Shown here: positions 20,276 through 39,721 of the stretch, piece by piece
How the letters are laid out: each line of letters starts with the position of its first letter
Numbering within the stretch: the stretch's first letter is position 1
Assembly (NCBI GenBank): GCA_044221725.1
Contig: JBGAON010000002.1
Coordinates: 128,001-192,000 of the forward strand
From: Elusimicrobiota bacterium
GTDB lineage: Bacteria; Elusimicrobiota; Elusimicrobia; F11
Length of the DNA: 64,000 nt
Reading direction: 5' to 3'
The notes under the pieces: generated by a model
The model's input: only the letters and a program-made list of their open reading frames with translations
The model's database searches: none
What the model was told of the DNA's origin: nothing
Made by a program: the position numbers and the translations under genes

Positions 20276-20773
20276 AAACAAAGAACAGTGGGGTGTATTT
20301 TTTTTCCTCCCCGTGTCTCATCAACGGGGAGGGTAGGGTGGGGTATTAATGGGCGTTCCAATTAAGGATGTTCGATTTATGTCCCTCCCTACCCTCCCCA
20401 CTGAGACGACGTGGGGAGGGATTCTTTTTCTCGCGTTGGTCGCAATGTTTTTATCGTCAGAGCGGGTTGGCGCGTTTCAGACCGAAATCAAGGAACATTC
20501 CTCAAAAGTGTATGAAGACATTATCCAGAAATACGACAAGCGCCTCGCGCAATAGAAACAAAGAACAGTGGAGTGTATTTTTTCCCTCCCCGTGTCTCAT
20601 CAACGGGGAGGGTAGGGTGGGGTATTAATGGGTCTTCCAATTAAGGACGTTCGATTTATGTCCCTCCCTACCCTCCCCACTGAAACGACGTGGGGAGGAA
20701 TTCTTTTCCTCGCGTTGGTCGCAATGTTTTTATCGTCAGCGCCGGTTGGCGCGTTTCAAACCGAAATCAAGGA
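20210..20773 (+). repeat. Tandem direct duplication of about 280 bp
   Basis: 20210-20489 vs 20490-20768 differ at roughly 15 positions by eye; aagga at all three junctions. Confidence 0.95.
20349..20555 (+). pseudogene. Chimeric 68-aa ORF created by the duplication
   Basis: N-terminus copies the leader of the 20628 gene; C-terminus (KEHSSKVYEDIIQKYDKRLAQ) copies the end of the 16973 gene. Confidence 0.6.
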
Positions 20774-22091
20774 TAAAAAAGATCTTTCGAGTTTCGAATT
20801 GTTGGAAGCGGGATTGGCGACGGAGAAAAATGTACCTCCGCCTGTGTATTGGCTGGGGCAGGGGGATTACGCAAAAGCGTTAAGCGCGCAAGGAGAGGAA
20901 GGGTGGCTTAAGGATTATCTCACCGGACTCAACAAAGTATTTCCGCCGCTCGTTCGGTTCGAATCCGAGCATTTTGTTTTGTGGACGCCACCCGATCAAA
21001 CATTTCTTAAAGATTACGCGCTTCCATCGCTGGAAAAAGCCGCAGCGCACTTCGAAAAACTTTTTGGACACCGCCCGGTCGGGAAGGTGCGCGTCGAAAT
21101 TTATTCCAACAAGGAAGATTTTTCAGTCGCATCCACGCTCAGCGATGAGACGCTGGAGCGTTCCGGCGCGATTGGTATCTGCAAATTCCATCGGCTCATG
21201 GTCATGTCACCAAAAACACTACCGCTCGGTTACCGTTGGTTGGACGCGCTTGCGCATGAGTACATGCATATGATGATCAACGAGCTCACGCATTCCAAGG
21301 CGGAATTGTGGTTGCACGAGGGAACCGCACGTTATTTTGAAAGCTCGTACCGGCTCGATCCGCCAGCGTTTCTTACTCCGGATCAAAAAACGAAGCTGCT
21401 CGAAGCGCTCGAACAAAAGAAATTGGTCGCGTTTGCACGCATGTCCCCTTCGATGGTTTACTTGAAGGATCAAGACGAAGTGTCGCTCGCGTTCGCGCAG
21501 GTGTCGCATGCGGTCAGTGTTCTCGTGCGCGATCGCGGCATGCCGCAGTTTGTGAAATTCCTCGTGTCGCTGCAGAAAATGTCGTTCGCACAGTCTTTTA
21601 AATCGAATTATGGAATGACACCGAGCAAGTTCGAGTCATATTGGCAGAATCAGTTGGGGAAAGAGAAGTGGGAAAAATCAAAAGGCACGATGTCGGATGA
21701 TGTTGTGTTTGCAACGCCCAAAGAAGACGACATGATTGGAGCCGATTCGCAGGCGCAAGTTCGGCTCGGAGACCGTATGCGACGACAGGGTCTGATGGAT
21801 GCGGCGCTGATTGAATACGAAAAAGCGCTGGAGGTTGAGCCAGACAATGCCGTTATTCTGTTAAAAGCGGCAAAAACAAATTTGGCGCTCGGGCAAAAAG
21901 ACGCTGCCATTACCCAGTTGCGACGCGCGATCGAAAAAAATCCCAATTATGTGACGCCGTATCTCGAGCTCGTGCCACTCGTTTCACCGGAACAAGCAAA
22001 GCCACTTCTCTACGAAGCGATTTCCATTAATCCGTTCGATCCGCGGATCGATTCTTACGAAATTTTGGCTGAGAAAATAGAGCGCCATTAG
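20628..22091 (+). CDS. Secreted peptidase MA-like (gluzincin) protein with TPRs
   Basis: Signal-like hydrophobic stretch, ESEHF, LAHEYMH, WLHEGTARYFE, C-terminal TPRs. Confidence 0.85.
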   Translation: MGLPIKDVRFMSLPTLPTETTWGGILFLALVAMFLSSAPVGAFQTEIKDKKDLSSFELLEAGLATEKNVPPPVYWLGQGDYAKALSAQGEEGWLKDYLTGLNKVFPPLVRFESEHFVLWTPPDQTFLKDYALPSLEKAAAHFEKLFGHRPVGKVRVEIYSNKEDFSVASTLSDETLERSGAIGICKFHRLMVMSPKTLPLGYRWLDALAHEYMHMMINELTHSKAELWLHEGTARYFESSYRLDPPAFLTPDQKTKLLEALEQKKLVAFARMSPSMVYLKDQDEVSLAFAQVSHAVSVLVRDRGMPQFVKFLVSLQKMSFAQSFKSNYGMTPSKFESYWQNQLGKEKWEKSKGTMSDDVVFATPKEDDMIGADSQAQVRLGDRMRRQGLMDAALIEYEKALEVEPDNAVILLKAAKTNLALGQKDAAITQLRRAIEKNPNYVTPYLELVPLVSPEQAKPLLYEAISINPFDPRIDSYEILAEKIERH

Positions 22092-25000
22092 GCGGACTGC
22101 AGAACGAGTCGCACGGTGCGTTCGATATCTTCGACACGAGGAATTAGGTTTTTTAATTCGAGGATGTCCGCGTTCGGTACGTGAACGTGCATGTCCCCCG
22201 AAAGTACAAAACGAACGTCTTTCGCTGACGTTACGCCCGAAGGCAGTTGTTGGTCATGGACACTTTCGGGGTCAAATATGTTGAATTTGATTCCTGCCTC
22301 CTTCTCTTCTTTGTATGTCTTAATCTCGATGCGAGCCCCCAAAAGCGCCAATGCGTTTTTGATTTTTTCGTAATGCTCCTTCGTGTGTGCATTATCTTTG
22401 ATAAGCCACACGGTGGGTTTCGTGAGTCCTGTAATTAGCATTCCTGCCGCTATTGATTGGGCGTTTTCGGTTCCTTGGAAAATGTACTCGGTCGCTTTGG
22501 TTGTGGCGGGTGCGGGCGTCACGAGTCCAAACGCTTCGATGATCACGGCTGTGAGTGCCGGCGCGTACAGATCGGCGGATTCTGGCGACATGTTCGGCAG
22601 TTGTTGACGCAGTTCGCTTCGAAACGTGCGTTTCTCCGCATTCTTTTCCCAGCGGTTTAATACCTCGTTTAAACCATATTGTTCGACGTGCGGCGCCAAC
22701 AGTCGCAACGCGGCCGCGCGGTCTTTCTTTGAAATTGCACTTACCAGATGTGCCAGAAGTTCCGCGTCAGCCTGTGCATATTTCGGCCGTTGGCGTGCGG
22801 ATTCATCCGCGTGCAAAAGATTGTTGGCGAAATAGTGACTGAGCATCGTGTTGAACCCAAAGTAGCGATACGTTTTTGCATCGCCAGGAATTACCAACGT
22901 TGAGGAATAGATTGCAAAAACAGCGATGAGTGTCGCAAACACGCTGTTCGTGAAGCGCGGTTCCGAAAACTGTTTTCCATAACGGCGATTGATCCACGGA
23001 ATGAGGAAATATTCCGCTGCATGCAGCGCTGCAAACAGGCTCCACGCGAACCTATTTGCTGTTTTGAAATCCATGCCGAGGTTGACGAATGCGCAGACAA
23101 CCAAAAACACGAAAGCGTTTTCAAGGAATGGCGCCACCATGCGGTTGTATGTTGTTGGGCCCAAGGAAGGGAAAAGCCATAAAACGCCGCCGCGGAGCGT
23201 GAACAATAATCCGCCGGTGCCAGAAGAATTGTTTTTCTTTGCGCGTTCGACGGCGCTGTAGAGAATGGGATAGGGCGACGCGTTAAATTCGATTTCCACG
23301 GGTGCTGGGGTCACCGATTCCGCGTTCGGATCCACGGATGGAATGTTTGATACGACAAAAAGCGGCCTCATGTCCGGCGTAACGGAATTTGATCCCCGAG
23401 GATTAAGCATCAGCGTTACGGAGGAATCAAGTTCCAGTGACTCTCCGGCAAAAAGAACTTGCCCCGAATGCATATTGGCTAAAACGGCTGATTTTCCAGG
23501 TCTTATTAAAGCCACGTAACAACTTCCATCGGCCTGCATTTGCACGAGGTACGTATTTTCTTTGTGGTGAAGTACAAATTCGCTTTCTTCGTATTGGAAT
23601 GAAAATCCTTTGTCGGGATCGATTCGAATGAAGAGTTTGACTTTTGTGCTCGCGACCATTTCACCATCGTTGTTGATTCTGCGTCGCGTTTTCTTCTCGA
23701 TTCTCGCCGCTGCCGCAATATGAGGAGGAACCGTTAATATGTTCGCAGCAGCAGCAAAATAGATGATGCCATCGGCATTGACAGCAAGGGCATCGTGAGA
23801 AGTGAGTGAGGATGAAATATCGTTTTGCGATAGCGGACCGTTCATGACGACGGTTTTTCCATTGGTTTTAAATTGCTTCCCGGAGAATTTCATGTGAAGC
23901 CACTGGCTGTATCGTGTCGTCAATAACCGCACCGGCTTCCCAGCGACGGCGCGATGCGCGAGCCGCACGTTGTCTGGAACTCGTGGACGGTTTAAGCGCA
24001 CCATTGTGCCATCCGCTGATTGTTCATCGACAATAGTGGCAATGAAAAATCCTTTTTCTTTTGTGACCATAATCGAGCGTTGATTGGCGAAATAGAATTT
24101 TTCTCCGAGTCCGAACGTCGATTCGCGAGGATGCGCGCCCGCGGAAATTGGTTCGTCAAAAAACTCTGACGCTTGTCCGTCTTCGATTTGAACAATGCGT
24201 TCGCCGGTGACGTGGCGGGTCAATTTGATTTGATCGTTTTCGATCGGCACGAATTCGTATTTATTGCTGGCGTCGATGCTGCGGGCTGATTGATTGTTGT
24301 CCAGGTAGATAATTACGGGGCCGATAAAAGCTTCTTTGAATTCAACGTGGTGGTTTGCATCTTTTAAAAGAGCCACCACCGGTGTTTCAACGTTTTCGTT
24401 GAGTTTGGTGCGAACATTGTTCAGCAACATAAGCATTTCTTTTTTGCTGAGATCGGTATTCCCGACGATGGGGTTGATCCAGTTTTCTCTAATGTCCGTT
24501 GGGATGCGCCGGTGTTCGATGGATTGGTTTGCAATCTGGTCAAGCAGTTGCGGCGCGAATGTGGTGTTGATAAGCCGTTCAAGCAGCGCGGTCTCGATAT
24601 TTTTCAGCTGTTGGTCACGAAGAGGATCTTTTCTGTTAACCAAGAAATGGGGGGCTGCGCTGGAGAGCACGGTGAGAAAAACCGCGATATTTGTTTGTTG
24701 AACGAACGAAAAAATAGTGCTGCCGAACAAAATTCCGGAAATAGCGACGATCAACGCTGCCATTGAATTGTAAGCGGGAGGCGCGTGGAATTTTGTGCCG
24801 AAGAATTTATGGAAAGCGAGAATTACGGCACGTTCGAACGGGTGAAGCAACGCGAAAACGGACCACGCAAAGATGTTCGCGGTGTTAAAGTCGTAACCGA
24901 ATTGCGCGGTCATAACAAAAACGGCGATGCCGACAAGAATGTTTTCAAAAGCCGGTGCTGCCCAGCGGTTATAGTCGGTCGTCGTCATCTTTTCACCGGT

Positions 25001-28000
25001 GAAAAATTGAAAGAACGGTGCGGTCGCCCATTGTCCCAATGGCCGCAGCGTGGTCAAAAGGCCGCCGGTGCTGGAGAAATCGTCTTCTTCTGGGCCTTCC
25101 CATCCGCTTTTGATGGCAAGTTGTGTCGCATCAATCAGCCACGTATGCGCAATATCGCGCAAAGTCGCTTTTGCATTTTGAAGGTCGCGCAATTCCACGT
25201 CTGTAAAATTGTTGTTCGCCGTGCCATAGGTCAGGGCTTCTTTAATTCTTGGTAGGCTTTCTTCTGCAATCCGATTCCATAAAAACAGGAGGTTCACCAG
25301 CCAATGGCGCGCCGTTGTATCCAGTTTTTTCGCGCGTTCTTCGGCCATCAGGATAGAGATAGCCATGGAAGCAATCAACAACTGCTCTGCCATGTAGGCG
25401 ATTTCTTTTGAATCTGTTTCCGGATTGAAACCACGCGCATTCCAAAATTCGCTTTCGAGTAATTGGGAATAACCATACGCGTCCACTTCATCCAGAAAAC
25501 GTGCGACGGGCGCCTTGCCATCGGTAAACCAAGGATCAAAAGGAATTTCCTTTTCTCCGTGGTGCATTCCAATGTCCGACATTTTCCGGATTACGGTGGA
25601 CAGATTATGCCGCCCTTCATGAACCAATGTGGACGCAATTTGAAGCGCTGTTAAACTTGCCGGATTGATCTTAATGACTCCCGATCGATTCGTTTCACCG
25701 TGCGATGGCAAGTCGGGATCGACAAGAATATTCGTTATTGCGGTGAGACTTTCCTTAATATAAGTCCGCTCGTGAAGAGGATCGGGTTGTTCCATTAGCA
25801 TCTTGAGAATTTCACCGGCTTTTTTGATCTTGTCGATATCGCGTTGCGAAGTGTCGGGGCCGTATTCAACCTGCAACAGGGGTTCGTTGAACGGCAAATA
25901 AAAGAATCCTGCCGGACCCCAGTTCTGTTTTCCCTTTAAGGCATTTGCGACGATGAGATTCAGCTGGTAAATTTTTGTTTGCCGATTAAAGATTTGCGTT
26001 TCGGCGCGTTGCATCACGTTTAAAAATTGATTCGCTTTCTTCCAGAAATACGAACCCAATAGATGATGCAGTTGATTTATTGGTAACGCGAGCACCGGTG
26101 CGAGAATTTGTTCAATAAACCTGTCGACGATCGGTTTAAATACCGGGTCGACGGTTGGAGCCTGCTCAATTACTCGGCGCGCGTGGTCCAAACGCTCCAT
26201 GATAAACGGCTCCGCTAGCTTCACTTGCGGATCTTGTTTCGCGAATTCAAGCCAGTCTTTTTTTCGGGTGGCGATCATTTTCAGCAAGTCGGCGCGGTCT
26301 CCTGTATTCTCAGGGATGGAAGCGACGCGCCAACCGAATGTGAGCGCGAACGCGTTGTAGAAAGCATGTGCGATGGTGTTTGCGAGATATCCCACCCAGA
26401 GCGAATGCGGGGAATCAATTCCAAAATAGAAAGAGGGAAGAATGGTGAGAAGCGTGAGCACGTAGCCGACGAACGCCGGTGGCGCGCGCATTCCGTGCGC
26501 ATTCGTGAACGCGCGCGCTTTTTCGCGGATCCATGGAAGCGCGAACAAAGCGGCAGCAAGCTTCGGTGCAACGACATGAACGGTATTGTCGCTCGGAACC
26601 ATTCCAATCGGCACGAGGCTCAACGAAAGCAACATTCCGATAAGGCCAATCATCGCGATACGCGATGACGCGGTCGGCAAGAAATACGTCAGCTCCACTC
26701 CCGCGGCCCCGAAAATCGTGTGCAGCACGTAATATATTTTGCCCGCCAGCGTGCCGTTAAGGAATTTGCCTCGCGCCCACGCGTCGTTGATCGAGGCGGG
26801 GGACACGAGAGTTGGGTTGTATAAGATAGCGTTCCGTTCCAATGGCTGGCGCGGGTCGTCGGCGGTCTCTTCCAATATGCGCGCGACATTGAAGTGTTTG
26901 ATTTTTGCGATTGGGAAAGCAATTGACGGAAGAATTCGCAGAAGTTGGTGCGACTCGGCATCCCAGATGCGGGTGGTCTCGTCAGCGCTTTGGGTCAAAA
27001 TGAGTTTTCCGTCCGGGCTGAACGCCGCGCCTCGAACACCGGCCAAGTGTCCTTCCATTTTCGCGATCAAATGACCATCGGTCGCGTTGAACAACCGAAC
27101 CGCTGTATCGTCGGCTCCGCTGGCAATCACATATTGGCCATCGGGGCTGAACGCAGCGGCGCTGATCCAGAACTTGTCCTCTGTTAAACGCAGATCTTTC
27201 TCGCGCCCATGTCTGTGCATTATGTAGGCCGTTTGATCCCAACTCGCCGCCAAAACACGCTCGCTATCCGGGCTGAAAGCAATGGCTGAGATCGTGCCCA
27301 TGGGCCCATTCAATACGTTGAGAATCTCACCCGTGTCCGTATCAAAAACGCGAACCGTGCCGCTTTCGGATCCGCCAATGGCGATCATCTTTCCATTCCT
27401 GCTGAACGCAACGGCATGGAGGGGCCACTGATTTTTGAACGCCCAGATCTCTTTTCCGTTTGAAACATTAAGAATGCGTAGCGTGCCATCGTCTCGCCCG
27501 ACGACGGCCACTTTTTTTCCGTCGAGGCTAAACACTCCGGCACCAAAACTTCCGAAATTCCCCGTTAGTTCAATGGTTGCGTTCCCAGATGGGTCAAATA
27601 TTGGGGCTGGATTGATACGATCGGCCAATAGGCCAAACCGCCCGTCAGGACTGTAGGAAACATGCTCAAACGTCTGCGAATGCCCTCTCAGCATTCGCAA
27701 TTGCTGGCCTTGATGCGCATCCAATATTCGGATGGTGCCATCCAGACTGCTGGTAACAATCTGTTCCCCGTTGGCAGTGAAATTGACTGCGAATAAATCA
27801 GCCGAATGGGTGGTCGGAATTCTTCTGTATTGCTCGCTTCTAAGATCAAACAGGTGCACGTCATTGTACGGGCCGACCGCAGCGAGCGTCTTGCCATCGG
27901 GGCTGAGCGCAATATCTCGGATTGGACGCGGAGGATCTGTGTTCCGCACAGAAATAATTTGACTCTCCGATGTGTCAAACACGATGATTGTGCAGTTGCT

Positions 28001-31000
28001 CGCTACACTGACCGCTATTTTATTTTCAGAATCGAATGCGACCGCTGTCACTCGTTCGGACTGCCCTCTTAATACCGCGATCGCTGGGCCGCCGGAAATT
28101 CGAAAAATTCGTGCGGTTCCAACCCCGTTTCCGGTAATTACGTATTCGCCGTCGGTACTGAAAGCCACGGCGTAGGTTTCGCCGCCGTTTGCGTCCAAAA
28201 TTGCGGTGACATTTCCGTCGGATGTCGAAAAAACTCTCGCCGTTCCGTCTTGGCTCCCCGTGGCGATTCGGTCTCCATTCGGACTAAACGCAACGGCATT
28301 AACGCGAAACGAATGTCCTTTCAAAATTGAATGTATCTTTCCTGTTGCGAGTTCGAACACCACAACGTTTTTCCCGAGAGGAACCGCAATCAGTTTCCCA
28401 TTGGGAGAGACGTTTTTCATGACCGGCTGCAGGTAGGCGCGGTAATCGTTAATCGTTTCGACGCGCGGCGCGACATTGTCCAGTGCCGCATCGTTTTTCT
28501 TTCGGGAATCTTTCGACATGTTCGCCGTGGCGGCGATCCATTTGAAAATGGATTCCATCGGCAGTTCGCGCAATTGTGTCGCTTGCGTTTCTAATAGATG
28601 GTTCACAGCATCGACAACTGTTCGCTCCGCCTCCGGATCGTTGTTAAGAGCCGACACAATTGCGGCCAACGTTTCAAATTTGCTCTGAAGGTGTGCCGCC
28701 GCAGAAAAATCAATGGAAGTAGAAAATCGTTGCAGCAGCAACTTCGCGAGTTCTTCTTTGCCTGGTTCCAGCGGGGAAGAGATGTCATTTAGCAGTCCAA
28801 CGGCATTTAAAATTGCCCGTATGCTTTTCGGCTTCTTGAGCTTCTGAGCCCGACCGACTAAGCGCGCCGTGTCCTCGGACGATTTGATAATTACCAGAGA
28901 TCGTGGAGTTGCGTACGGGTCCGCTTCCAAACCAAAAGATTCTTTTACGGTTTTTCCGACGTTCTTTTTATCATCGGACGTATCGAGATAACAGATAGCG
29001 ATGGTGAGCCCGGTAGCGTCGTACGAGAATGGATGTGTCACTTTTTCGGCTACGTCAATAAGAGCATCAGGAAAGTCTCTTTCAAACCCCCCGAACCGAA
29101 GATGAGCATGGACAACGGCGAAGTTTGCGTTGACGGGCGCATCCATTGTGCCGACAGATCTCTGAATTGGCGAGACCAGATACAGTTCCGTGGTTTCCTT
29201 TTGTTCATTTTCAACACGAATCACGGACGTGTGTGCGGGATCGAGACCGAACCTCACGAAAAGTTCTTCGCTGAGAAATTCCGCCATGTTTGCATCGGTC
29301 ATGCGCGCCGAGATGATTCCCTGCCCCGCGAGTGCGCGCACGTGTTCGATTTCCAAAAGTTGACGGATCGCTTCGAATGCACTCGCGGTAGGTGACCCGT
29401 TCGGCCTTTTTGTCTCTTTCATAGCGAGCAGCGCCTCTGGGGAGGAGCCCAATTCCGTGAAGCCCGCCAAGTCCATCCATACAAGAAAATCGTCCGCGGT
29501 AAGAATTGCGGCCTTCTCCAATTCCGCCCGCTCGTTCGCGAGAGGTTCGGAAACCTTTCGCCAGGTTGCAAAGAACGGTGTAAGTTCGTGGGCAAATGGG
29601 AACCGCGAGCCTAACGATACCGTGTCGAGCGTTGCGAGTACTTTCGTCGTAATGTCGCCGGGCTTCAGATATCTTTTTGCCGCATTGTACAGTCGAATGC
29701 GTGCGTCAACATTTGCAGGAAGCGCTCCTTGCAGGACGAGCAATCCAAAATAATCTTCGACTTCGGGATTTCTTAACTCACTGAGAAGCTCCTCTGGCGC
29801 ATCGGTGAGAAGTTTTCGGGCGACTGTTTCTGGTGATTCGGCTGCGGTTTCCACTTTCGCCTCATTTCTATCGATGTAACGGGTCAAATCGACGTACACA
29901 AACTGGCTGTCGTTGTGAATTCCTTGACCGGTGAAACCCTGTCCGCTTAGCTCAAGCAGGTGTCTCGCGCTTATTTCGCGTAGGTTGGGGATTAGGAGCG
30001 CGCGGTATCCTTTTTCGGCCAGAAGCGTGAAGAGTCGACTGAAAAACAATTTTTTCGGGGACCATGTGCGATCGTCCATTGGTTGATAGATGAAATGGTC
30101 GGAGGTCTTTGTAAGACTTCCGTGAGCGAGCCACAATTGCTTTCCAGGTTCGTCCATTCGCTCACCGTATCGATTCAACGGTAAAGGAATTGGAATTTGT
30201 GGCACTTGCAAATTTAAATCGAGGAGCGTGCGTTCTTCGGCTGTCTGGTCAATTTGAAGAGCGTAACTCGAAATAATTGGCAGCGTGTCCGTCGCGGTTG
30301 GCGGCGCCGCCGCAAAGTGGGCCATTGAAACTTGTAATTTAAAACCACCGGCGATTGTGTAGGACCGAAATATCCGGAGCAGTTGGCTTGCATCCTCAAA
30401 AGACAGTGTTGGGTTTTTTGTAGGGGCGTATTTTTCTCTCAGTAGTTTCATGAACGCTTCGTTGTCGATGATGGTTTTGTCGTCAGCGGCCGACGCCGTG
30501 GGCCATCCAAAAAAAAGTGCGAATGCATTGTAGAGAGCGTGTCCCGTGTAGTTTGCGAGATAACCCCAAAGAGCGTGGGGGGAATCAATTCCGGAATAGA
30601 AGGAAGGAAGAATCGTGATGCCGGCGAGCACGAGTCCAACGAAGGGTGGCGGTGCGCGTAACGGGTGAGCGGCCGTGAACTCTTTTGCCCGATTTCGGAT
30701 CCACGGGATGGCAAAAAAAGCGGCGGCAATTTTAACCGCAATCACGTCAAAACCATTGTCGCTCGGAACGATCCCGAGCGGAATTAGGCTTAGCGATAGA
30801 ACCATTCCGACAAGCCCCAGCGTACCCATCCGCGATGACGCGATCGGTAGGAAATACCTCAACTCCACCCCCGCGGCCCCGAAAATCGTGTACAGCGCAT
30901 AATAAATTTTCCCACGGACAGTGCCGCGGAATTTGCCATGAAAAAACGTTTCGCGCGCCCACGTGTCGTTGATCGAGGCCGGTGGAAACGTGGTCTTCGC

Positions 31001-34000
31001 AATGATTTCTTCGAGCAGTGAGCGGCCGCTTGATTTTTGCGCTGCCTCATCCAAAATCTGATTCAGAATTGACTCGTTGGCTCGTCTCTGCTGTTCGAGT
31101 TCGACGCGGTAACGGTCCGCGCGTGATTGCGCGAGCACCGTTGCGATTTCGGTATCCGACATTTTGTTGATGATTTCCGTGGTTCGTGTAATCCGTGCGG
31201 CCTCCGTCTCAACTTGTTGGCGCAGCTTTCCAACGGATTCCATCAGTTCACCTTTATACCGCAGCACGCTTTGAAGCAATTGTTTTCTTTTGCGGTCGTA
31301 ACGGTCCTTTTCTCTCAGGTGGTGCGCTTTTCTGTCGGTGTTCTCTTCGTCTTGCATGTGTGTTTGTTCGTTCTCCGCAAGTTTGCGGTATTTTTCAACA
31401 AGAATTGTCTGGCGGTCGGCAATGGCTTTATGAAAAGAAAAAAGCGTCCGATAGGCGGCGTTGATTTCCTCAATATCGAGTCGGAAACCGTCGAGATAAC
31501 TTTTGTCTCCGGGTTTGTCTTTGAGCGTTCCGCTATGCAATTCTCGTAAAAGGGCGTCAACGCGGTCCGCTCTCGGCTTTGAAAGATGGCGTTTCAATTC
31601 ATCTTTTTTAATGTGAAATTCCAACACGACCGTCGATGATCGAAGCTTTTCATAGTTGGTCCAAAACTCGTCAAGCTTTGCTTCCCATTCGTCCAGCCGA
31701 ATTCTCCAGTCACTCAATTTTTTATCGTCGGATTCGTCGAGGCTGTCATACGTGGCCTTCGGAAGAGTTTCAAGCGTCGGTATGCTGTTAATGTGGTCCC
31801 GCACAATCTGATGGCGCGCCGCTACAGCTCTCTGCGCGGACTCCAGTAGATAAAGCGTTGCTTCGCTTATGATCTCTGTCGCGGCGTTTCTACCGTGAAG
31901 AACAATGGCGTCGGTGACAGGGTCGGCAGCGGCATCGGACGGGGGGGCAGCATTTGCCGGGTTAAGAGTCTGTTCCAGTAGATTATCGAGCATCGTTTTG
32001 CCGGCGCCAAATTTTCTTCCGTTGGCGGCGGCGATTTGCGCGTCAAGGTGGTTCGAGAGATCTCCGAGCGCTTTCAATGCTTTTTGAATTTCTTGGTTGT
32101 CGATCGCGATTTTCTTCGAGGCCTCTTTGATTTCGTTGACGGCGGCGGCCGTTGACGCATCGGTCACGAGCACGTTCCGGGCAAGAACGGCATTTGCAGC
32201 AGAAGTATTTGTTTGTGCCGGAACAGGTGATTCGTCCGCGCTCGCGGATGCCAGTGGCAGCCAATCGCCCAGACGTTTAGCCAAGCCACTATTTGATTGG
32301 CGCAGGCCAAGCACCAGGCGGTTGTATCCCATGTGAATTCCAATCCCAACAAAAAGTCCACCGATGGCGGTAAGATTCTTTTGAGTCTCTGAAAGATCCG
32401 CCATGAGCGAGGGAAGCGCCAGCGGAAGCGACAACAGCGACCCTATCACCGCCATCAAGAAAATCTTTTGACCCACGGTGGCTTTTCGATGCACCAATCC
32501 AAAAACAATGTTCGCAGCGATCGCGATAGCACCCATGGTCATGGTGTTGGGGCCAGCCGCTACATGGACGGCGAGCGGCAATTGGAAGATCCATTCCCAG
32601 AACGGCGCACCGGCAAGTGGACGTTGGGCCCACGAAAACAATGGTTTCGCTGCCGTTGGGTTTTCCGTGGTGTTTTGCGTTTCACTTTCGGTCCGCTTCA
32701 CTGTGTCGTACAACTGTTGGGGTACGAGAATTGCTCCAATTGTTTTTGTCCAAAATGTCCCTGGGAATAGTTTTGTGATCGTTAAAACGTGCTCACGGAA
32801 GAGCAGTAGTTTTTCTTTGAACGTAAACTTTGCGGTGATGTCGTCACGTGTCGGATCGGTTTTGTCGAGGATATTTATGCGGAACGTGAGTCGACGTTGA
32901 CCGATGCGCCAAGGAAATGTATCGACGCCAAGCAGGCGTGCACTCAAGCTTCCGAAGGTGCGGATGTGTGTGGCCACGCTGTTCTGGTCTTCGGGGGCTA
33001 CGAAAAGTTTTTCGCCCTGAACTAGTTTTTCGATGGGGGTTTTTTCGCGCGCGAAGACCGTGAGATAAGCGCTTCCGGAGGCGTTATCAATCTTGGTGAT
33101 CTTGGGCGAAACCACGACGTAGGGGATTTTCTTTTCGCGGAGGCGTTGCGTAAAGAGAGGCGTGTGGAAACCGCCTACGACGAGCCCCTTCACCGGATGG
33201 GCTTCGCCCATCGCCTCTCTCCCAATGGACGGCGCTGGAGGAAAGGGATTCTCTTTTAAAAGGTTCGCGAGCATTCTCTCGGTGCGGAGGTCCGCTTGTT
33301 CGTAGAAGCTTTCGAAAGGTTTTAAAAAGGTACTTCGTGCAGTGTCCTTCGTCCCTCGTCTCTGGTATTCGTTAATCGAATTCGTCGTGCGACGTACGCT
33401 GTACGAAGCACGAAGTACCTTTTTGTAGTTCTCCCATTCTTTAGCTGTCAGCGAAAACTCCACAAGTTTCTTCGTGAGTGCCACGTGCTCGCTTTCGGCG
33501 AGCAGCTGTTGTTCGCTGCCCGTTTTTGCGATTTCTTTTTTTAGCGCGGTCTCGAGCGCGTCAATCTCGTCGAAGAGTGTGTCGGCTTTGATGCTGTCGG
33601 TGAGCAACACGTAGCGCAGATAATTTTCAAATACGGGTGTCTCGCGAAGATTGATTCCTTTTTTCTCGCAGAGATTGCGGAGATTTCCGTAGTACCGTCC
33701 GAACGTCAACCGGCCGGACCGATACGCCACGCTTTGAGCGAGCAAATCGGACGTTTCGTTTTCACTGAGCGTTGCCGCTAGTTTTTTTAATGTTCGGTTT
33801 CGTTCGACTTCGATTCTCGGTAAATCCAGCGTCCGTTCCATCTGAAACGCTTCAAGAAAACGTGCCACGGTGGACAAAGGCGATGGTTCTTTTATTTCGG
33901 CCAGCTTGCTGAGATAGGTGCCGAGGCCTATCTGTTCGGCGTGATAGGCCGCTTGTATTTCGTCGAACCGTTGCAGCGAGGGAGAAAACACTTTCTTTTT

Positions 34001-34729
34001 CTGTTCAACGAGTTCGGTTTCTGCGCGGGCGATTTCTTTAAGTGCCGATTTCTTTATCGAGCGGGAATCCAGGTAGGCTTGTACGTTCGCGTCGTAATGT
34101 TCGCGGTCATCAACGCCAAACCAATCAAGGGTTTTTTCGGCGTTTGTGATGCCAGTGAATGTCGGCGCCGCCATGACGTTTTGATTCAGATAAGACTCGG
34201 CTATTTGTCGCACAGCGGGTTTATCGACGAACTTCCGAAATGCGGAGAAATCCATTTCTCCGAACGCGCCTTCCACGCCGATGCGAGCGGCCAATTTTTC
34301 ATCAATGAGCGTTTGCAGCGTGGCCGCGATATTCGCTTGCGCTTCGCTGTTCATGTGAATATCTTGAACGATGACAATCGGGGTTTTGAGCTGGGTTTTG
34401 TCGCTCGTCGAGTTGGGGAAAACCTCCTGGATCGTTGAAGGCGTCAGAGAGAGCGCTTCAATTACGGGCTTAATTGCAGCGGGCAACTTCTCAAAGCGGG
34501 GTTCCAGTGATGGCTTTAATGTCGGAATTGAAGGAAGGGATGCTCCGATAGCTGAAAAACGCTGCGAGATCGGCGCGCTCGGTGAGAGAGCCGCGTATTG
34601 CGCGGACTGCGCTTTCTTCCGTTCGGACCAAATACTGATTTCGGGCTGACTTCCCAGCGCGATTTGCGTTGTGAAATAAACCAAACAAAGACTGCCAGAA
34701 ATGATTTTTTTAACGGAGGGGACTGTCAC
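22088..34729 (-). CDS. Giant 4213-aa multi-domain membrane protein (TraB/TIKI-like N-domain, five CPBP-like TM modules, WD40 repeats, HExxH domain)
   Basis: Uninterrupted 12.6-kb ORF; signal-like N-terminus; about 12 WD40 repeats at ~26930-28420; LVHEGRH at ~25607-25627; repeated TM modules. Confidence 0.92.
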   Translation of the reverse strand: MTVPSVKKIISGSLCLVYFTTQIALGSQPEISIWSERKKAQSAQYAALSPSAPISQRFSAIGASLPSIPTLKPSLEPRFEKLPAAIKPVIEALSLTPSTIQEVFPNSTSDKTQLKTPIVIVQDIHMNSEAQANIAATLQTLIDEKLAARIGVEGAFGEMDFSAFRKFVDKPAVRQIAESYLNQNVMAAPTFTGITNAEKTLDWFGVDDREHYDANVQAYLDSRSIKKSALKEIARAETELVEQKKKVFSPSLQRFDEIQAAYHAEQIGLGTYLSKLAEIKEPSPLSTVARFLEAFQMERTLDLPRIEVERNRTLKKLAATLSENETSDLLAQSVAYRSGRLTFGRYYGNLRNLCEKKGINLRETPVFENYLRYVLLTDSIKADTLFDEIDALETALKKEIAKTGSEQQLLAESEHVALTKKLVEFSLTAKEWENYKKVLRASYSVRRTTNSINEYQRRGTKDTARSTFLKPFESFYEQADLRTERMLANLLKENPFPPAPSIGREAMGEAHPVKGLVVGGFHTPLFTQRLREKKIPYVVVSPKITKIDNASGSAYLTVFAREKTPIEKLVQGEKLFVAPEDQNSVATHIRTFGSLSARLLGVDTFPWRIGQRRLTFRINILDKTDPTRDDITAKFTFKEKLLLFREHVLTITKLFPGTFWTKTIGAILVPQQLYDTVKRTESETQNTTENPTAAKPLFSWAQRPLAGAPFWEWIFQLPLAVHVAAGPNTMTMGAIAIAANIVFGLVHRKATVGQKIFLMAVIGSLLSLPLALPSLMADLSETQKNLTAIGGLFVGIGIHMGYNRLVLGLRQSNSGLAKRLGDWLPLASASADESPVPAQTNTSAANAVLARNVLVTDASTAAAVNEIKEASKKIAIDNQEIQKALKALGDLSNHLDAQIAAANGRKFGAGKTMLDNLLEQTLNPANAAPPSDAAADPVTDAIVLHGRNAATEIISEATLYLLESAQRAVAARHQIVRDHINSIPTLETLPKATYDSLDESDDKKLSDWRIRLDEWEAKLDEFWTNYEKLRSSTVVLEFHIKKDELKRHLSKPRADRVDALLRELHSGTLKDKPGDKSYLDGFRLDIEEINAAYRTLFSFHKAIADRQTILVEKYRKLAENEQTHMQDEENTDRKAHHLREKDRYDRKRKQLLQSVLRYKGELMESVGKLRQQVETEAARITRTTEIINKMSDTEIATVLAQSRADRYRVELEQQRRANESILNQILDEAAQKSSGRSLLEEIIAKTTFPPASINDTWARETFFHGKFRGTVRGKIYYALYTIFGAAGVELRYFLPIASSRMGTLGLVGMVLSLSLIPLGIVPSDNGFDVIAVKIAAAFFAIPWIRNRAKEFTAAHPLRAPPPFVGLVLAGITILPSFYSGIDSPHALWGYLANYTGHALYNAFALFFGWPTASAADDKTIIDNEAFMKLLREKYAPTKNPTLSFEDASQLLRIFRSYTIAGGFKLQVSMAHFAAAPPTATDTLPIISSYALQIDQTAEERTLLDLNLQVPQIPIPLPLNRYGERMDEPGKQLWLAHGSLTKTSDHFIYQPMDDRTWSPKKLFFSRLFTLLAEKGYRALLIPNLREISARHLLELSGQGFTGQGIHNDSQFVYVDLTRYIDRNEAKVETAAESPETVARKLLTDAPEELLSELRNPEVEDYFGLLVLQGALPANVDARIRLYNAAKRYLKPGDITTKVLATLDTVSLGSRFPFAHELTPFFATWRKVSEPLANERAELEKAAILTADDFLVWMDLAGFTELGSSPEALLAMKETKRPNGSPTASAFEAIRQLLEIEHVRALAGQGIISARMTDANMAEFLSEELFVRFGLDPAHTSVIRVENEQKETTELYLVSPIQRSVGTMDAPVNANFAVVHAHLRFGGFERDFPDALIDVAEKVTHPFSYDATGLTIAICYLDTSDDKKNVGKTVKESFGLEADPYATPRSLVIIKSSEDTARLVGRAQKLKKPKSIRAILNAVGLLNDISSPLEPGKEELAKLLLQRFSTSIDFSAAAHLQSKFETLAAIVSALNNDPEAERTVVDAVNHLLETQATQLRELPMESIFKWIAATANMSKDSRKKNDAALDNVAPRVETINDYRAYLQPVMKNVSPNGKLIAVPLGKNVVVFELATGKIHSILKGHSFRVNAVAFSPNGDRIATGSQDGTARVFSTSDGNVTAILDANGGETYAVAFSTDGEYVITGNGVGTARIFRISGGPAIAVLRGQSERVTAVAFDSENKIAVSVASNCTIIVFDTSESQIISVRNTDPPRPIRDIALSPDGKTLAAVGPYNDVHLFDLRSEQYRRIPTTHSADLFAVNFTANGEQIVTSSLDGTIRILDAHQGQQLRMLRGHSQTFEHVSYSPDGRFGLLADRINPAPIFDPSGNATIELTGNFGSFGAGVFSLDGKKVAVVGRDDGTLRILNVSNGKEIWAFKNQWPLHAVAFSRNGKMIAIGGSESGTVRVFDTDTGEILNVLNGPMGTISAIAFSPDSERVLAASWDQTAYIMHRHGREKDLRLTEDKFWISAAAFSPDGQYVIASGADDTAVRLFNATDGHLIAKMEGHLAGVRGAAFSPDGKLILTQSADETTRIWDAESHQLLRILPSIAFPIAKIKHFNVARILEETADDPRQPLERNAILYNPTLVSPASINDAWARGKFLNGTLAGKIYYVLHTIFGAAGVELTYFLPTASSRIAMIGLIGMLLSLSLVPIGMVPSDNTVHVVAPKLAAALFALPWIREKARAFTNAHGMRAPPAFVGYVLTLLTILPSFYFGIDSPHSLWVGYLANTIAHAFYNAFALTFGWRVASIPENTGDRADLLKMIATRKKDWLEFAKQDPQVKLAEPFIMERLDHARRVIEQAPTVDPVFKPIVDRFIEQILAPVLALPINQLHHLLGSYFWKKANQFLNVMQRAETQIFNRQTKIYQLNLIVANALKGKQNWGPAGFFYLPFNEPLLQVEYGPDTSQRDIDKIKKAGEILKMLMEQPDPLHERTYIKESLTAITNILVDPDLPSHGETNRSGVIKINPASLTALQIASTLVHEGRHNLSTVIRKMSDIGMHHGEKEIPFDPWFTDGKAPVARFLDEVDAYGYSQLLESEFWNARGFNPETDSKEIAYMAEQLLIASMAISILMAEERAKKLDTTARHWLVNLLFLWNRIAEESLPRIKEALTYGTANNNFTDVELRDLQNAKATLRDIAHTWLIDATQLAIKSGWEGPEEDDFSSTGGLLTTLRPLGQWATAPFFQFFTGEKMTTTDYNRWAAPAFENILVGIAVFVMTAQFGYDFNTANIFAWSVFALLHPFERAVILAFHKFFGTKFHAPPAYNSMAALIVAISGILFGSTIFSFVQQTNIAVFLTVLSSAAPHFLVNRKDPLRDQQLKNIETALLERLINTTFAPQLLDQIANQSIEHRRIPTDIRENWINPIVGNTDLSKKEMLMLLNNVRTKLNENVETPVVALLKDANHHVEFKEAFIGPVIIYLDNNQSARSIDASNKYEFVPIENDQIKLTRHVTGERIVQIEDGQASEFFDEPISAGAHPRESTFGLGEKFYFANQRSIMVTKEKGFFIATIVDEQSADGTMVRLNRPRVPDNVRLAHRAVAGKPVRLLTTRYSQWLHMKFSGKQFKTNGKTVVMNGPLSQNDISSSLTSHDALAVNADGIIYFAAAANILTVPPHIAAAARIEKKTRRRINNDGEMVASTKVKLFIRIDPDKGFSFQYEESEFVLHHKENTYLVQMQADGSCYVALIRPGKSAVLANMHSGQVLFAGESLELDSSVTLMLNPRGSNSVTPDMRPLFVVSNIPSVDPNAESVTPAPVEIEFNASPYPILYSAVERAKKNNSSGTGGLLFTLRGGVLWLFPSLGPTTYNRMVAPFLENAFVFLVVCAFVNLGMDFKTANRFAWSLFAALHAAEYFLIPWINRRYGKQFSEPRFTNSVFATLIAVFAIYSSTLVIPGDAKTYRYFGFNTMLSHYFANNLLHADESARQRPKYAQADAELLAHLVSAISKKDRAAALRLLAPHVEQYGLNEVLNRWEKNAEKRTFRSELRQQLPNMSPESADLYAPALTAVIIEAFGLVTPAPATTKATEYIFQGTENAQSIAAGMLITGLTKPTVWLIKDNAHTKEHYEKIKNALALLGARIEIKTYKEEKEAGIKFNIFDPESVHDQQLPSGVTSAKDVRFVLSGDMHVHVPNADILELKNLIPRVEDIERTVRLVLQSA
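33324..33424. repeat. In-frame hairpin element with a perfect 17-bp inverted repeat and internal heptamer repeats
   Basis: aaaaaggtacttcgtgc (33324-33340) / gcacgaagtaccttttt (33408-33424). Confidence 0.8.
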
Positions 34730-34735
34730 TTCCTT

Positions 34736-34822
34736 ATAATAAGGCAGGTTCCCTTAAGATCGCCTTTAGGGGGGATTAAGTTTCCCTTAAGGTTCTCGGC
34801 GGACAATCGGTACATTGTACCG
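34736..34822 (-). promoter_or_regulatory. Promoter/operator region of the giant gene
   Basis: -10 TATTAT 6 nt before the GTG; minus-strand repeats CTTAAGGGAAA CTTAATCCCCC CTAAAGGCGAT CTTAAGGGAAC at 11-bp spacing; palindrome cggtaca-t-tgtaccg at 34808-34822. Confidence 0.6.
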
Positions 34823-34855
34823 CCGCCTTATCGATACTTCCGATCTACGTGTTAA

Positions 34856-39601: not shown

Positions 39602-39721
39602 AATTGAGGCAAGGATAAGAGGAGTTTTCTTGAAAAACCATTTCTTTCTTAATTTGTTTTTAGAAGTATGAATTGGGTTGATTTTACGACGCAATCGGAG
39701 GCTTTTTTAGAGTGTTAATTT

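Follow-up and report, generated by a model that had tools for sequence, protein, structure and literature searches.

A giant mosaic membrane protein of an Elusimicrobia bacterium carries five modules that probably derive from CPBP/Rce1-type intramembrane proteases

The window, a stretch of 64,000 nucleotides from an Elusimicrobiota bacterium (contig JBGAON010000002.1, positions 128,001 to 192,000), carries on its minus strand a giant gene (22088..34729) that starts with GTG and encodes 4213 amino acids in one uninterrupted open frame; all features described below lie on this strand, with coordinates counted within the window. Directly upstream from the GTG, four CTTAA/CTAAA repeats with 11-bp spacing are followed by a TATTATAA box (34754..34791, read from the sequence), and this pattern of repeats and box occurs at 4 places in the genome compared with none for the reversed control. 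An independent DNA run covered 30/30 bins of the giant gene, with at least 99% identity in 35/37 pieces and no indels listed. RNA-library contigs from one study were near-identical to the gene over 22, 17, and 24 of the 30 bins, in libraries that may contain DNA and for which uncovered bins are uninformative. One X10 contig had a single opposite-strand joint and was taken as a chimera. The organism is present in bioreactor or wastewater communities.

The protein appears to be laid out as a signal-peptide-like N terminus, a conserved head of about 550 amino acids, and then six mutually unrelated soluble segments parted by four-helix membrane modules. Its hydrophobic segments group in five modules (here M1 to M5, counted from the N terminus), with two isolated exceptions at residues 3110-3129 and 4052-4072, and its seven soluble segments are mutually unrelated (best non-self BLAST E value, 0.67), in agreement with what the preliminary description of this DNA had said of the domains between the modules. 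The first 27 residues (34649..34729) read as a Sec-type signal-peptide-like N terminus and lead into the conserved head start E-x-S-I-W-S-E-R-K; the same N-terminal pattern of a hydrophobic segment, small residues, and ESNxWxERR is found in the relatives P0133, P0129, P0143, P0175, and P0157. The shared head domain (about 550 aa; residues 28-580; 32990..34648) was recognized by BLAST: it is 30% identical (E value, 4e-77) to the head of a 2306-aa paralog from the same genome, and it matches the N-terminal parts of this paralog and of 27/60 module-bearing representatives, with the relatives at 34 to 41% identity coming from uncultured Elusimicrobia sp. Pfam gave no match for the head, the TraB/PrgY/Tiki hydrolases (PF01963) included, and hhalign of 19 heads against only 2 canonical TraB sequences gave 1.8% and aligned only a C-terminal R..M ... 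VGGFH ... G-Y-x-V stretch. With its predicted signal-like segment at the N terminus and its conserved head of about 550 residues, the 4213-aa protein belongs to the head-bearing giants.

The soluble cargo between the modules gave few links to known families. Cargo I1 (residues 821-1250; 30980..32269) is helical and charged, with no Pfam match above noise and no BLAST relative among 60 family proteins; cargo I2 (residues 1419-2106; 28412..30475) and cargo I4 (residues 3381-3814; 23288..24589) are likewise without a family in Pfam and BLAST searches. Cargo I2 is followed by a WD40 beta-propeller region (residues about 2107-2597; 26939..28411), matched in Pfam by WD40 (E value, 1.4e-51) and several other propeller families. 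Cargo I3 (residues 2810-3214; 25088..26302) contains an HEGRH string of the HExxH type, read from the sequence at 25607-25621; Pfam gave no match for this segment, and an Atlas search gave weak leads to zinc-peptidase clusters (scores of 0.85 to 0.91). For the C-terminal cargo (residues 3985-4213; 22091..22777), BLAST among the 60 family proteins found one relative, the C terminus of P0124 (24% identity; E value, 3e-10). In a homolog search with the whole length of the protein, WD40 proteins dominated, the listed matches covered 5 to 14% of the query, and no full-length relative was found; this search is uninformative with regard to the modules.

The five modules share a putative Glu/His/His/Asn tetrad, kept in 5/5 copies in the order Glu, FxxxH, HxxxN. 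Recognized by these motifs and by an HMM derived from CPBP proteases, and for M1 also by an AF2 model, are M1 (residues 692-820; 32270..32656; E712/H747/H799/N803), M2, which has an extra hydrophobic segment (residues 1251-1418; 30476..30979; E1289/H1355/H1397/N1401), and M3 (residues 2645-2809; 26303..26797; E2679/H2745/H2788/N2792). M4 (residues 3208-3380; 24590..25108; E3262/H3296/H3361/N3365) and M5 (residues 3815-3984; 22778..23287; E3870/H3903/H3965/N3969) were recognized by the motifs and by a family of their own, M5 also by an AF2 model. All 15 motif strings quoted in the preliminary description are present, in the order it gave and about where it had placed them, but its picture of five copies of one module has to be corrected: the copies are not uniform, M2 and M3 being 65% identical and M4 and M5 37% identical, and a pairwise search found no significant similarity between M1 and the other modules or in the cross-pairs. 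The modules fall into two rare families, type A (M1 to M3) and type B (M4 and M5); MAFFT run on the five modules alone misaligned the motifs. The second and third CPBP motifs, FxxxH and HxxxN, are each present in 5/5 modules. The first, EExxxR, is absent from all five, each having a single Glu, which aligns with the first Glu of the canonical pair; the earlier caution that motif 1 has one Glu and usually lacks the Arg was well placed and extends to both families, in which motif 1 reads W-E-W..Q..P (type A) or E-N (type B), with a single Glu and no Arg.

A type-A profile was searched against 1.84 billion representatives, and only the first round of the iterated HMM was used because iteration drifted into the flanks. 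The search found only 61 proteins. The preliminary description had suggested looking for the module in other giant proteins and asking whether its Glu and His residues are conserved in homologs, and both were found: 41/60 of the other type-A proteins have at least 1000 aa, several of them with two to four modules, and the type-A columns (68 instances in 60 proteins) are near-invariant (E 58/61, F 68/68, H 67/68, H 64/64, N 61/62), while none of the residues E, N, F, H, H, and N varies among the 14 type-B sequences. The motifs are not a matter of chance, because the modules form families with near-invariant residues. Type A was found in 29 of the 393 genomes surveyed from the class (9/11 in family f1, 9/12 in f4, 3/11 in f5, and 7/15 in f10) and in none of the other families searched, and the open frames that carry it reach 14169 aa; type B occurs in 9/393 genomes, partly in the same ORFs as type A. 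Both module families occur almost only within giant ORFs of four related families, and the giant gene is an intact representative of a family of giant mosaic membrane proteins that is restricted to the lineage of Elusimicrobia-type bacteria. A search for related loci with module alignment A2 found no conserved stretch, and a literature search found no paper describing these modules.

Kinship to CPBP/Rce1-like proteases was judged by the PF02517 gathering score (22.4 bits) and by the motifs EExxxR, FxxxH, and HxxxN/D. None of the five modules matched PF02517, even at an E value of ≤10. PF02517 was the sole Pfam family matched by more than one type-A member (5/23; best E value, 0.005, below the cut-off), and in NCBIfam type-A members matched only MrtJ (2/23 at an E value of 2.4). 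The CPBP-derived HMM, for which 22 PF02517-type modules embedded in giants were the sole input, matched M3 at 23.1 bits (E value, 2e-7), M1 at 16.7 bits (1.8e-5), and M2 at 16.1 bits (2.7e-5), and it found 32/68 type-A instances at an E value of ≤1e-3, compared with 0/68 reversed controls (E value, ≤0.01). An hhalign comparison of type A with 48 canonical CPBP sequences gave 90.6% (E value, 1.3e-6; score, 42.6) and was collinear across all three motifs, whereas 40 column shuffles scored at most 11.0 and the reversed alignment scored 16.8. Bridging sequences are also found: L100 scores 23.8 bits on PF02517, above the Pfam cut-off, and 24.5 bits on the type-A HMM over positions 15-161, and its sequence (APLWEEIAFRYLP ... 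GRGWRIAS) is a hybrid of the canonical and type-A motif styles. The 2306-aa paralog carries two modules with EELxxR, FxxxH, and HxxxN (17.9 to 19.8 bits on PF02517), and a 14169-aa ORF of genome G031 has PF02517 matches and type-A modules together.

For type B the same comparisons gave lower values. With the CPBP-derived HMM, M4 and M5 reached E values of 16 and 0.057 and the type-B member L054 reached 26.8 bits; hhalign of type B with canonical CPBP sequences gave 12.7% (score, 24.7; reversed, 9.4; shuffled, at most 11.7), and PF02517 was matched by 1/14 type-B members (E value, 0.25). Type A and type B were not significantly similar by hhalign, and cross-HMM matches between them reached E values of only 0.002 to 0.05. 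The proposal that the modules are CPBP/Rce1-like is thus borne out for M1 to M3 by the CPBP-derived HMM, the hhalign result, the bridging sequences, and the canonical paralog, and applies to M4 and M5 with weaker, only transitive evidence. These comparisons indicate that M1 to M3 very probably descend from CPBP proteases; for M4 and M5, where the link is only transitive, via L054 and the collinear motifs, we lean toward the same descent.

Structural models agree with this kinship in part. The AF2 model of M1 (pLDDT, 86.6) has four helices, and that of M5 (pLDDT, 82.2) has four long helices and two N-terminal ones; in both, the Glu lies 8 residues into helix 1, helix 2 ends with the FxxxH His, and HxxxN lies 7 to 11 residues before the end of helix 4, so placed by helix register that all four tetrad residues fall in one leaflet. 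A similar helix layout is described for the CPBP domain of MrtX and MmRce1, TM4 to TM7, in the accessible text of PMC11980579. Foldseek searches of PDB with the M1 and M5 models gave nothing at an E value of ≤0.001. The best structures of the CPBP superfamily were SpdC for M1 (6u0o_A; Z, 6.5; rmsd, 3.9; 111 aligned; rank 2 of 48161) and APH-1B for M5 (8oqz_C; Z, 7.3; rmsd, 4.5; 137 aligned; rank 3); designed bundles and ion-channel helices scored equally well, and this Z range is common for helical bundles. A second structure comparison with PDB brought up nothing but generic bundles and helices of Cys-loop receptors, with no Rce1 entry in any list, and profile searches of PDB sequences gave 0 matches for alignment A4 and one chance match for A5. 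The fold comparison proposed in the preliminary description therefore came out divided: the four helices and the gathering of the tetrad in one leaflet, by register, would speak for an Rce1-like core, but Foldseek returned nothing and the Z scores tie with those of unrelated bundles.

With modules that are probable relatives of CPBP proteases, giants of this kind may be self-cleaving. About a third of the type-A instances have GW-[TP]-x-A-[SA] after helix 4 (G 23/34, W 22/32, A 23/24), and an S-I-x-D-x-W-A leader precedes the module in 7 to 12 of the 68 instances; no junction motif common to all modules was found. A reading of GW-T-x-A-S as a signal-peptidase-I-type site was rejected: the motif is absent from most modules, and the reading requires the C-terminal flank to be outside, which is contradicted by the loop charges. 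In 56 type-A instances, K+R averaged 1.84 per instance in loop 2-3 compared with 0.00 and 0.04 in the other loops, a distribution that would place both module flanks in the cytoplasm. The predicted topology cues conflict here, cytoplasmic flanks by loop charge standing against the Sec-type signal on the head directly upstream from M1, which suggests a periplasmic location of the cargo.

Our results suggest that the modules are divergent descendants, in two sequence types, of the four-helix core of CPBP proteases (Rce1/Abi, type II CAAX proteases). From motif 1 both types have kept only the first Glu, without the second Glu and the Arg, whereas the His of FxxxH and the His and Asn of HxxxN are retained. 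Each module would then be a catalytically competent glutamic-type intramembrane peptidase with an active site in the leaflet toward which its own N- and C-terminal linkers face, and its substrates would be juxtamembrane segments, either of the same giant protein or of sister giants. We put the combined statement, that the modules are CPBP derived and keep a working catalytic-type site, at a probability of about 0.55. Whether the modules are catalytically active seems evenly balanced, and that the precursor is cut by its own modules is doubtful. A true bacterial membrane polyprotein, in which the five modules, once inserted, would cut the linkers next to the membrane, either in cis or from one sister chain to another, is an improbable extension; it would yield six products, namely the head, four cargo pieces, and the tail, each of them set free or still anchored by a single four-helix module.

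Conservation of catalytic-type residues is no proof of catalysis. SpdC, a CPBP/CAAX-protease homolog, acts as a noncatalytic scaffold, the role described for it in the accessible text of bioRxiv 10.1101/2020.05.21.109470. By analogy, the modules could be CPBP derived but nonproteolytic, serving as anchors or scaffolds that orient the soluble domains at the membrane, as SpdC does for SagB, in a giant chain that stays uncut; we regard this as somewhat unlikely. CflP is, in the text available for it, a further noncatalytic CPBP member, the best membrane-protein structure matches were SpdC (M1) and a scaffold subunit, APH-1B (M5), and motif 1 is degenerate in its missing second Glu and Arg. A 582-aa ORF of genome G038 moreover consists of one soluble domain and a C-terminal module, with nothing downstream to release. 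A mere anchor, however, would need none of the four polar intrahelical residues that are near-invariant in two divergent types and kept in 5/5 copies here, and of the Glu pair it is the first that has been retained, the residue that in MrtX bridges the water together with the motif-2 His, according to the portion of PMC11980579 at hand.

The same residues might instead serve other chemistry, such as acyl transfer or the handling of lipids or glycan carriers for the neighboring cargo enzymes. There are precedents in a CPBP-family protein of the S. aureus LnsAB lipoprotein N-acylation system (PMC7387801 and PMC13559823, each as far as its accessible text goes) and in the suggestion, made for SpdC, that the CPBP cavity binds a lipid carrier (accessible text of bioRxiv 10.1101/2020.05.21.109470), but no cargo of the 4213-aa protein was identified as a lipid or glycan enzyme by Pfam, and we consider this very unlikely. 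Slightly less credible still than other chemistry is that the likeness to CPBP proteases is convergent and that the modules are an unrelated four-helix membrane bundle, perhaps metal binding, in which E, H, H, and N happen to follow the CPBP order. The missing Pfam matches of M1 to M5, fold matches no better than generic bundles, and the nonsignificant comparison of types A and B (cross-HMM E values of only 0.002 to 0.05) would fit convergence; against it stand the 32/68 type-A instances found by the CPBP-derived HMM, with 0/68 when reversed, intermediate sequences that combine both motif styles, and the occurrence of canonical and divergent modules in the same ORFs and with the same head architecture.

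Set beside the CPBP/Rce1-like glutamic intramembrane endopeptidases (PF02517; MmRce1, eukaryotic Rce1, and myxosortase MrtX), the modules are alike in having the Glu in helix 1, FxxxH where helix 2 ends, and HxxxN in helix 4, in the profile-level similarity of M1 to M3, and in the presence of canonical members in the same giant ORFs and in the paralog. They differ in motif 1, which reads W-E-W..Q in type A and E-N in type B rather than EExxxR, in comprising only the four-helix core, without the extra N-terminal helices of Rce1 and MrtX, and in occurring in up to five copies in one polypeptide with large soluble domains on both sides; M1 to M5 also score below the Pfam cut-off and are known here from sequence alone. 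APH-1 of gamma-secretase (PDB 8OQZ chain C) we take to be a CPBP-like helix bundle that has a partner enzyme at the membrane. SpdC of S. aureus (PDB 6U0O) is, in the accessible description, likewise a CPBP-like helix bundle working with a partner enzyme at the membrane; both, however, are separate proteins in complexes and not modules of a giant chain, and their Z scores lie within the range of unrelated bundles. Viral and other self-processing polyproteins also embed protease-type domains between unrelated functional segments of a long precursor, but the candidate proteases here would be intramembrane and are repeated, and cleavage is here only proposed. The giant membrane proteins of Omnitrophota are similarly very long and rich in unrelated domains, and they have a signal peptide, numerous TM helices, or both, whereas the present family is from Elusimicrobia, is smaller (1 to 14 kaa), and is defined by a shared head and CPBP-type modules. 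Whether the Omnitrophota giants are cut is an open question in the accessible text of bioRxiv 10.1101/2023.11.21.568195, where C39 and S8 peptidase domains are put forward for this task, and their topology classes are described in the available part of bioRxiv 10.64898/2026.06.07.730766; the terms CPBP, CAAX, Rce1, and "intramembrane" are absent from the accessible text of both.

Our findings suggest that part of the membrane segments of these giants is a recognizable, residue-conserved derivative of an intramembrane protease family. To our knowledge, the membrane segments of bacterial giants have so far been treated only as anchors. The module profile can be used to find such modules in other giant proteins, and the CPBP superfamily would be widened by an Arg-less branch with a single Glu, by a minimal four-helix form, and by a repeated, embedded architecture. 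If the modules are inactive, they would be another case of CPBP-type scaffolds and would bear on how the giants are organized at the membrane; if the polyprotein reading is true, they would be the long-sought device by which uncultured bacteria make many proteins from one gene and one promoter.

The giant gene (window positions 34729-22088, minus strand) is a single open frame that starts with GTG and encodes 4213 aa. It is no assembly artefact: contigs from an independent DNA run span 30 of 30 bins of the gene, with at least 99% identity in 35 of 37 pieces and no indels listed. All fifteen motif strings of the preliminary description were found, in the order claimed and approximately at the coordinates claimed. 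Each of the five membrane modules, numbered M1 to M5 from the N to the C terminus, carries a Glu, FxxxH, and HxxxN (E712/H747/H799/N803 in M1, E1289/H1355/H1397/N1401 in M2, E2679/H2745/H2788/N2792 in M3, E3262/H3296/H3361/N3365 in M4, and E3870/H3903/H3965/N3969 in M5). Modules and cargo alternate strictly: five four-helix modules of the type of CPBP (the Rce1/Abi-like intramembrane protease family, PF02517) against six soluble segments, with the tetrad kept in 5/5. Strongly hydrophobic 19-mers are concentrated in the five module blocks; two lone hydrophobic segments lie outside them, one within cargo segment I3 and one within the C-terminal domain. WD40 propellers (residues about 2107-2597) are the only Pfam domains of the protein. 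That its soluble segments are mutually unrelated was borne out for seven, the lowest non-self BLAST E value being 0.67. In one wastewater study, three metatranscriptomic libraries yielded short, near-identical contigs that cover 22, 17, and 24 of the 30 bins of the gene (region 21500-35500), with DNA carry-over possible.

Upstream of the gene, four CTTAA/CTAAA repeats with a spacing of 11 bp (34754-34791, minus strand) are followed by TATTATAA and AAGGAA up to the GTG at 34729; because these elements adjoin the start, the leader is very short or absent. The strict repeat pattern occurs at 4 places in the genome and at 0 for the reversed control. The next gene upstream on the same strand (34856-39694, minus) encodes a 1612-aa E/K/R/Q-rich, coiled-coil-like product that had no match in Pfam, and the strong AT skew of the stretch is due to this gene. 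The convergent neighbor (20628-22091, plus strand; 487 aa), whose stop runs 4 bases into the giant gene at its 3' end, encodes Peptidase_MA_2 (E = 8e-10) and TPR repeats.

By pairwise comparison, the five modules are not copies of a single repeat but members of two families. M2 and M3 share 65% identity (E = 3e-77) and M4 and M5 37% (E = 4e-17), a weak link joins M2 to M5 (E = 0.004), and M1 had no significant match among the other four. Type A (M1 to M3 and relatives) and type B (M4, M5, and relatives) match each other weakly, with cross-HMM E values of 0.002-0.05, largely in the C-terminal half. The giant gene is the only one with either kind in the window's own genome, which comprises 2.82 Mb in 5 contigs and is 94% complete; in relatives, weak module matches lie within open frames whose lengths range from 1124 to 14169 aa and whose translations carry the same three motifs. 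A type-A profile built from eight modules and scored on 1.84 billion representative proteins (E ≤ 0.001) matched 61 proteins, or 60 besides the giant protein; 41 of these have at least 1000 aa (maximum, 7806), and the 19 shorter ones may include truncated entries. Of the 393 genomes searched within the class, 29 carry type A, the window's own among them (9/11 in family f1, 9/12 in f4, 3/11 in f5, and 7/15 in f10), and none of the remaining families searched yielded it (e.g., 0/145, 0/80, and 0/78); giant ORFs with type A often hold several copies each. Type B is present in 9 of the 393 and sometimes shares an ORF with type A.

The E/H/H residues, whose variability in homologs would have spoken against the proposal, are conserved. 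Across 68 type-A instances from 60 proteins, the columns read E in 58/61, P in 59/62, F in 68/68, H in 67/68, H in 64/64, and N in 61/62; among 23 type-A sequences drawn from genomic loci, no exception occurs for F, H, G, H, and N and few for E, P, and P, and the 14 aligned type-B sequences agree throughout at E, N, F, H, H, and N. From this conservation and the distribution of both types, it follows that the motifs are no chance strings but constitute the conserved core of real families. The earlier caveat that motif 1 has a single Glu and usually lacks the Arg applies family-wide, type A having W-E-W..Q..P and type B E-N compared with the canonical EExxxR.

The CPBP/Rce1-like identity proposed for all five modules is supported for M1 to M3, through a CPBP-derived HMM and hhalign, and is tentative for M4 and M5, through a transitive link only. 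None of the five matched PF02517 even at E ≤ 10, and profile searches of PDB sequences with the module families returned nothing relevant. PF02517 was the sole Pfam family matched by more than one type-A member (5/23; best E, 0.005); it was matched by 1/14 type-B members (E = 0.25). Over 61 related genomes, its above-cutoff matches fall within giant ORFs of 13760, 12118, and 5763 aa and others, and a 14169-aa ORF combines such matches with type-A modules. One giant-embedded sequence intermediate between the motif styles (L100) reads APLWEEIAFRYLP ... GRGWRIAS; it scores 23.8 bits on PF02517, above the Pfam cutoff, and matches type-A HMM positions 15-161 at 24.5 bits. Several of the giant-embedded PF02517-type modules are such intermediates. 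In hhalign, the 68 type-A instances gave 73% (E = 3e-5) against 28 single-domain CPBP sequences, 79% (E = 1.5e-5) against 22 giant-embedded ones, and 90.6% (E = 1.3e-6) against all 48 canonical sequences; the last alignment scored 42.6 with the three motifs collinear, compared with a maximum of 11.0 for 40 column shuffles of the query and 16.8 for the reversed alignment. An HMM made from the 22 giant-embedded PF02517-type modules and nothing else detected 32/68 type-A instances at E ≤ 1e-3 and 43/68 at E ≤ 0.01 (reversed, 0/68), among them M3 (23.1 bits; E = 2e-7), M1 (16.7 bits; E = 1.8e-5), and M2 (16.1 bits; E = 2.7e-5). For type B it detected 3/16 at E ≤ 1e-3 (reversed, 0/16), including the type-B member L054 at 26.8 bits, with weak values for M5 (E = 0.057) and M4 (E = 16); hhalign of type B against CPBP gave 12.7% and a score of 24.7 (reversed, 9.4; shuffled maximum, 11.7), again with three collinear motifs. 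CPBP descent is well supported by these comparisons for M1 to M3 and plausible, only transitively, for M4 and M5.

AlphaFold2 models made with family alignments were confident, with a pLDDT of 86.6 and pTM of 0.78 for M1 (helices 15-36, 40-56, 63-86, and 92-121) and 82.2 and 0.74 for M5 (two short helices, then four long ones). With neither model did Foldseek give a match at E ≤ 0.001, and a second look at its own list showed generic bundles only. A structural search of 48161 chains with M1 ranked SpdC (6u0o_A, residues 115-235; Z = 6.5, rmsd 3.9, 111 aligned) second after a designed bundle (Z = 7.0), and that with M5 ranked APH-1B (8oqz_C; Z = 7.3, rmsd 4.5, 137 aligned; top Z, 7.5) third, the SpdC and APH-1B values being level with those of unrelated helical proteins and in a range common for such folds. 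Both SpdC and APH-1B are CPBP-like bundles. In the M1 model, helix 1 bears the Glu 8 residues from its start, the motif-2 His comes just beyond the end of helix 2, and the H and N of HxxxN lie 7-11 residues short of the C-terminal end of helix 4. Helix register puts all four in the same leaflet, the one on the side of the module's N and C termini. The same Glu/His/HX3N helix layout is described in the MrtX paper for the CPBP domain, which comprises TM4 to TM7 and in which TM4 bears the Glu, TM5 the His, and TM7 HX3N (PMC11980579).

The N terminus of the giant protein is Sec signal-like, with a basic stretch, a hydrophobic stretch, and small residues, followed by E-S-x-W-x-E-R-R, the conserved start of a head domain of about 550 aa; five relatives (P0133, P0129, P0143, P0175, and P0157) show the same pattern. 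The head is common to 27/60 module-bearing representatives and to a paralog in the same genome, and relatives with 34-41% identity occur in records titled "uncultured Elusimicrobia sp." Against two canonical TraB sequences, the only ones among the 61 relatives, hhalign gave 1.8% for the head, the aligned stretch being just R..M ... VGGFH ... G-Y-x-V. Segments I1, I2, I3, and I4 and the WD40 region had no counterpart among the 60 representatives at E ≤ 1e-5, and the C-terminal tail had one, the C terminus of P0124. Because the head is widely shared and the cargo, bar the tail, has no counterparts, the family is, judged by these comparisons, one of head, variable cargo, and CPBP-type modules. 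Cargo I3, a 405-aa segment without an assigned family, contains an HEGRH (HExxH-type) string (25607-25621, minus strand) and gave weak leads to zinc-peptidase clusters in the Atlas, nothing stronger; in a relative from another genome (L018, G008), a module is followed by cargo with AHEVFH. A 582-aa ORF (G038:C30; L031:1450-3198, minus strand) joins a soluble N-terminal domain without signal peptide to a single C-terminal type-A module and ends 20 residues past HxxxN, in appearance a minimal "cargo plus module" unit.

The cues to topology conflict. Across 56 type-A instances, the loop that joins helix 2 to helix 3 averages 1.84 Lys plus Arg, and the remaining two loops average 0.00 and 0.04; because of this concentration, to which the loop charges of M1 itself conform, the positive-inside rule suggests cytoplasmic flanks and a cytoplasmic active-site leaflet. 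By contrast, the Sec-type N terminus and the head directly upstream of M1 appear exported, and no hydrophobic segment was found between head and M1 (32270-34729, minus strand). M2 (30476-30979, minus) and M3 (26303-26797, minus) share an N-terminal leader, S-I-N-D-x-W-A-R, and flank the I2-WD40 segment, each with an extra hydrophobic segment missing from M1. Such a pair may have arisen by a recent internal duplication, or it may place the enclosed segment on the opposite side of the membrane; M2 and M3 may have five helices, in which case the side of the bracketed segment would flip.

If the modules were active peptidases that cut the giant chain, the protein would be a self-processing polyprotein, an attractive and testable reading that we consider unlikely as yet, at roughly 0.2 to 0.25. 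Putative catalytic activity is favored by four polar intramembrane residues that are near-invariant across two diverged types and by retention of the first Glu, which is described in the MrtX study as acting together with the motif-2 His to bridge the catalytic water (PMC11980579). The modules may instead be CPBP derived yet nonproteolytic, serving, for example, as scaffolds or as part of other chemistry: motif 1 has lost its second Glu and its Arg, SpdC is described as a noncatalytic scaffold despite its likeness to Rce1 (bioRxiv 10.1101/2020.05.21.109470), and further CPBP members are reported to be noncatalytic or to belong to an acyltransferase system. The 582-aa protein, moreover, has nothing downstream of its module to release. 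For cleavage of the giant chain itself, no universal junction motif was found at the module borders among the 68 type-A instances; GW-[TP]-x-A-[SA] comes after helix 4 in roughly one in three of them, and S-I-x-D-x-W-A precedes the module in 7-12/68.

A term search of two giant-gene preprints found no CPBP, CAAX, Rce1, or "intramembrane"; one of them treats cleavage as an open question and proposes C39 and S8 domains (bioRxiv 10.1101/2023.11.21.568195). A full-text literature search found no paper linking CPBP or CAAX to giant genes or giant proteins. The CPBP family itself is known; what appears to be new, compared with its canonical members, is a minimal branch of four helices, with a single Glu and no Arg, that is repeated within mosaic giant proteins.

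The paralog, a 2306-aa ORF on another contig (G000:C3; L013:3158-10078, plus strand), contains the two PF02517 matches that a search of the window's genome gave, both subthreshold (19.8 and 18.8 bits; cutoff, 22.4). It has two canonical EExxxR CPBP modules (17.9-19.8 bits on PF02517), reading GGVFEELVIRN/FATVLH/HAFFN and GGLMEEILIRR/FAVVFH/HALIN, and its head shares 30% identity with residues 7-578 of the giant protein (E = 4e-77). With these strings and the shared head, the paralog carries textbook CPBP motifs within the same architecture. Between its two modules lies a subthreshold Sigma70_r4 match (20.9 bits; cutoff, 24.1; E = 2.5e-4). If a membrane-held sigma-like segment does sit between two protease-type modules, this arrangement would fit release by cutting.
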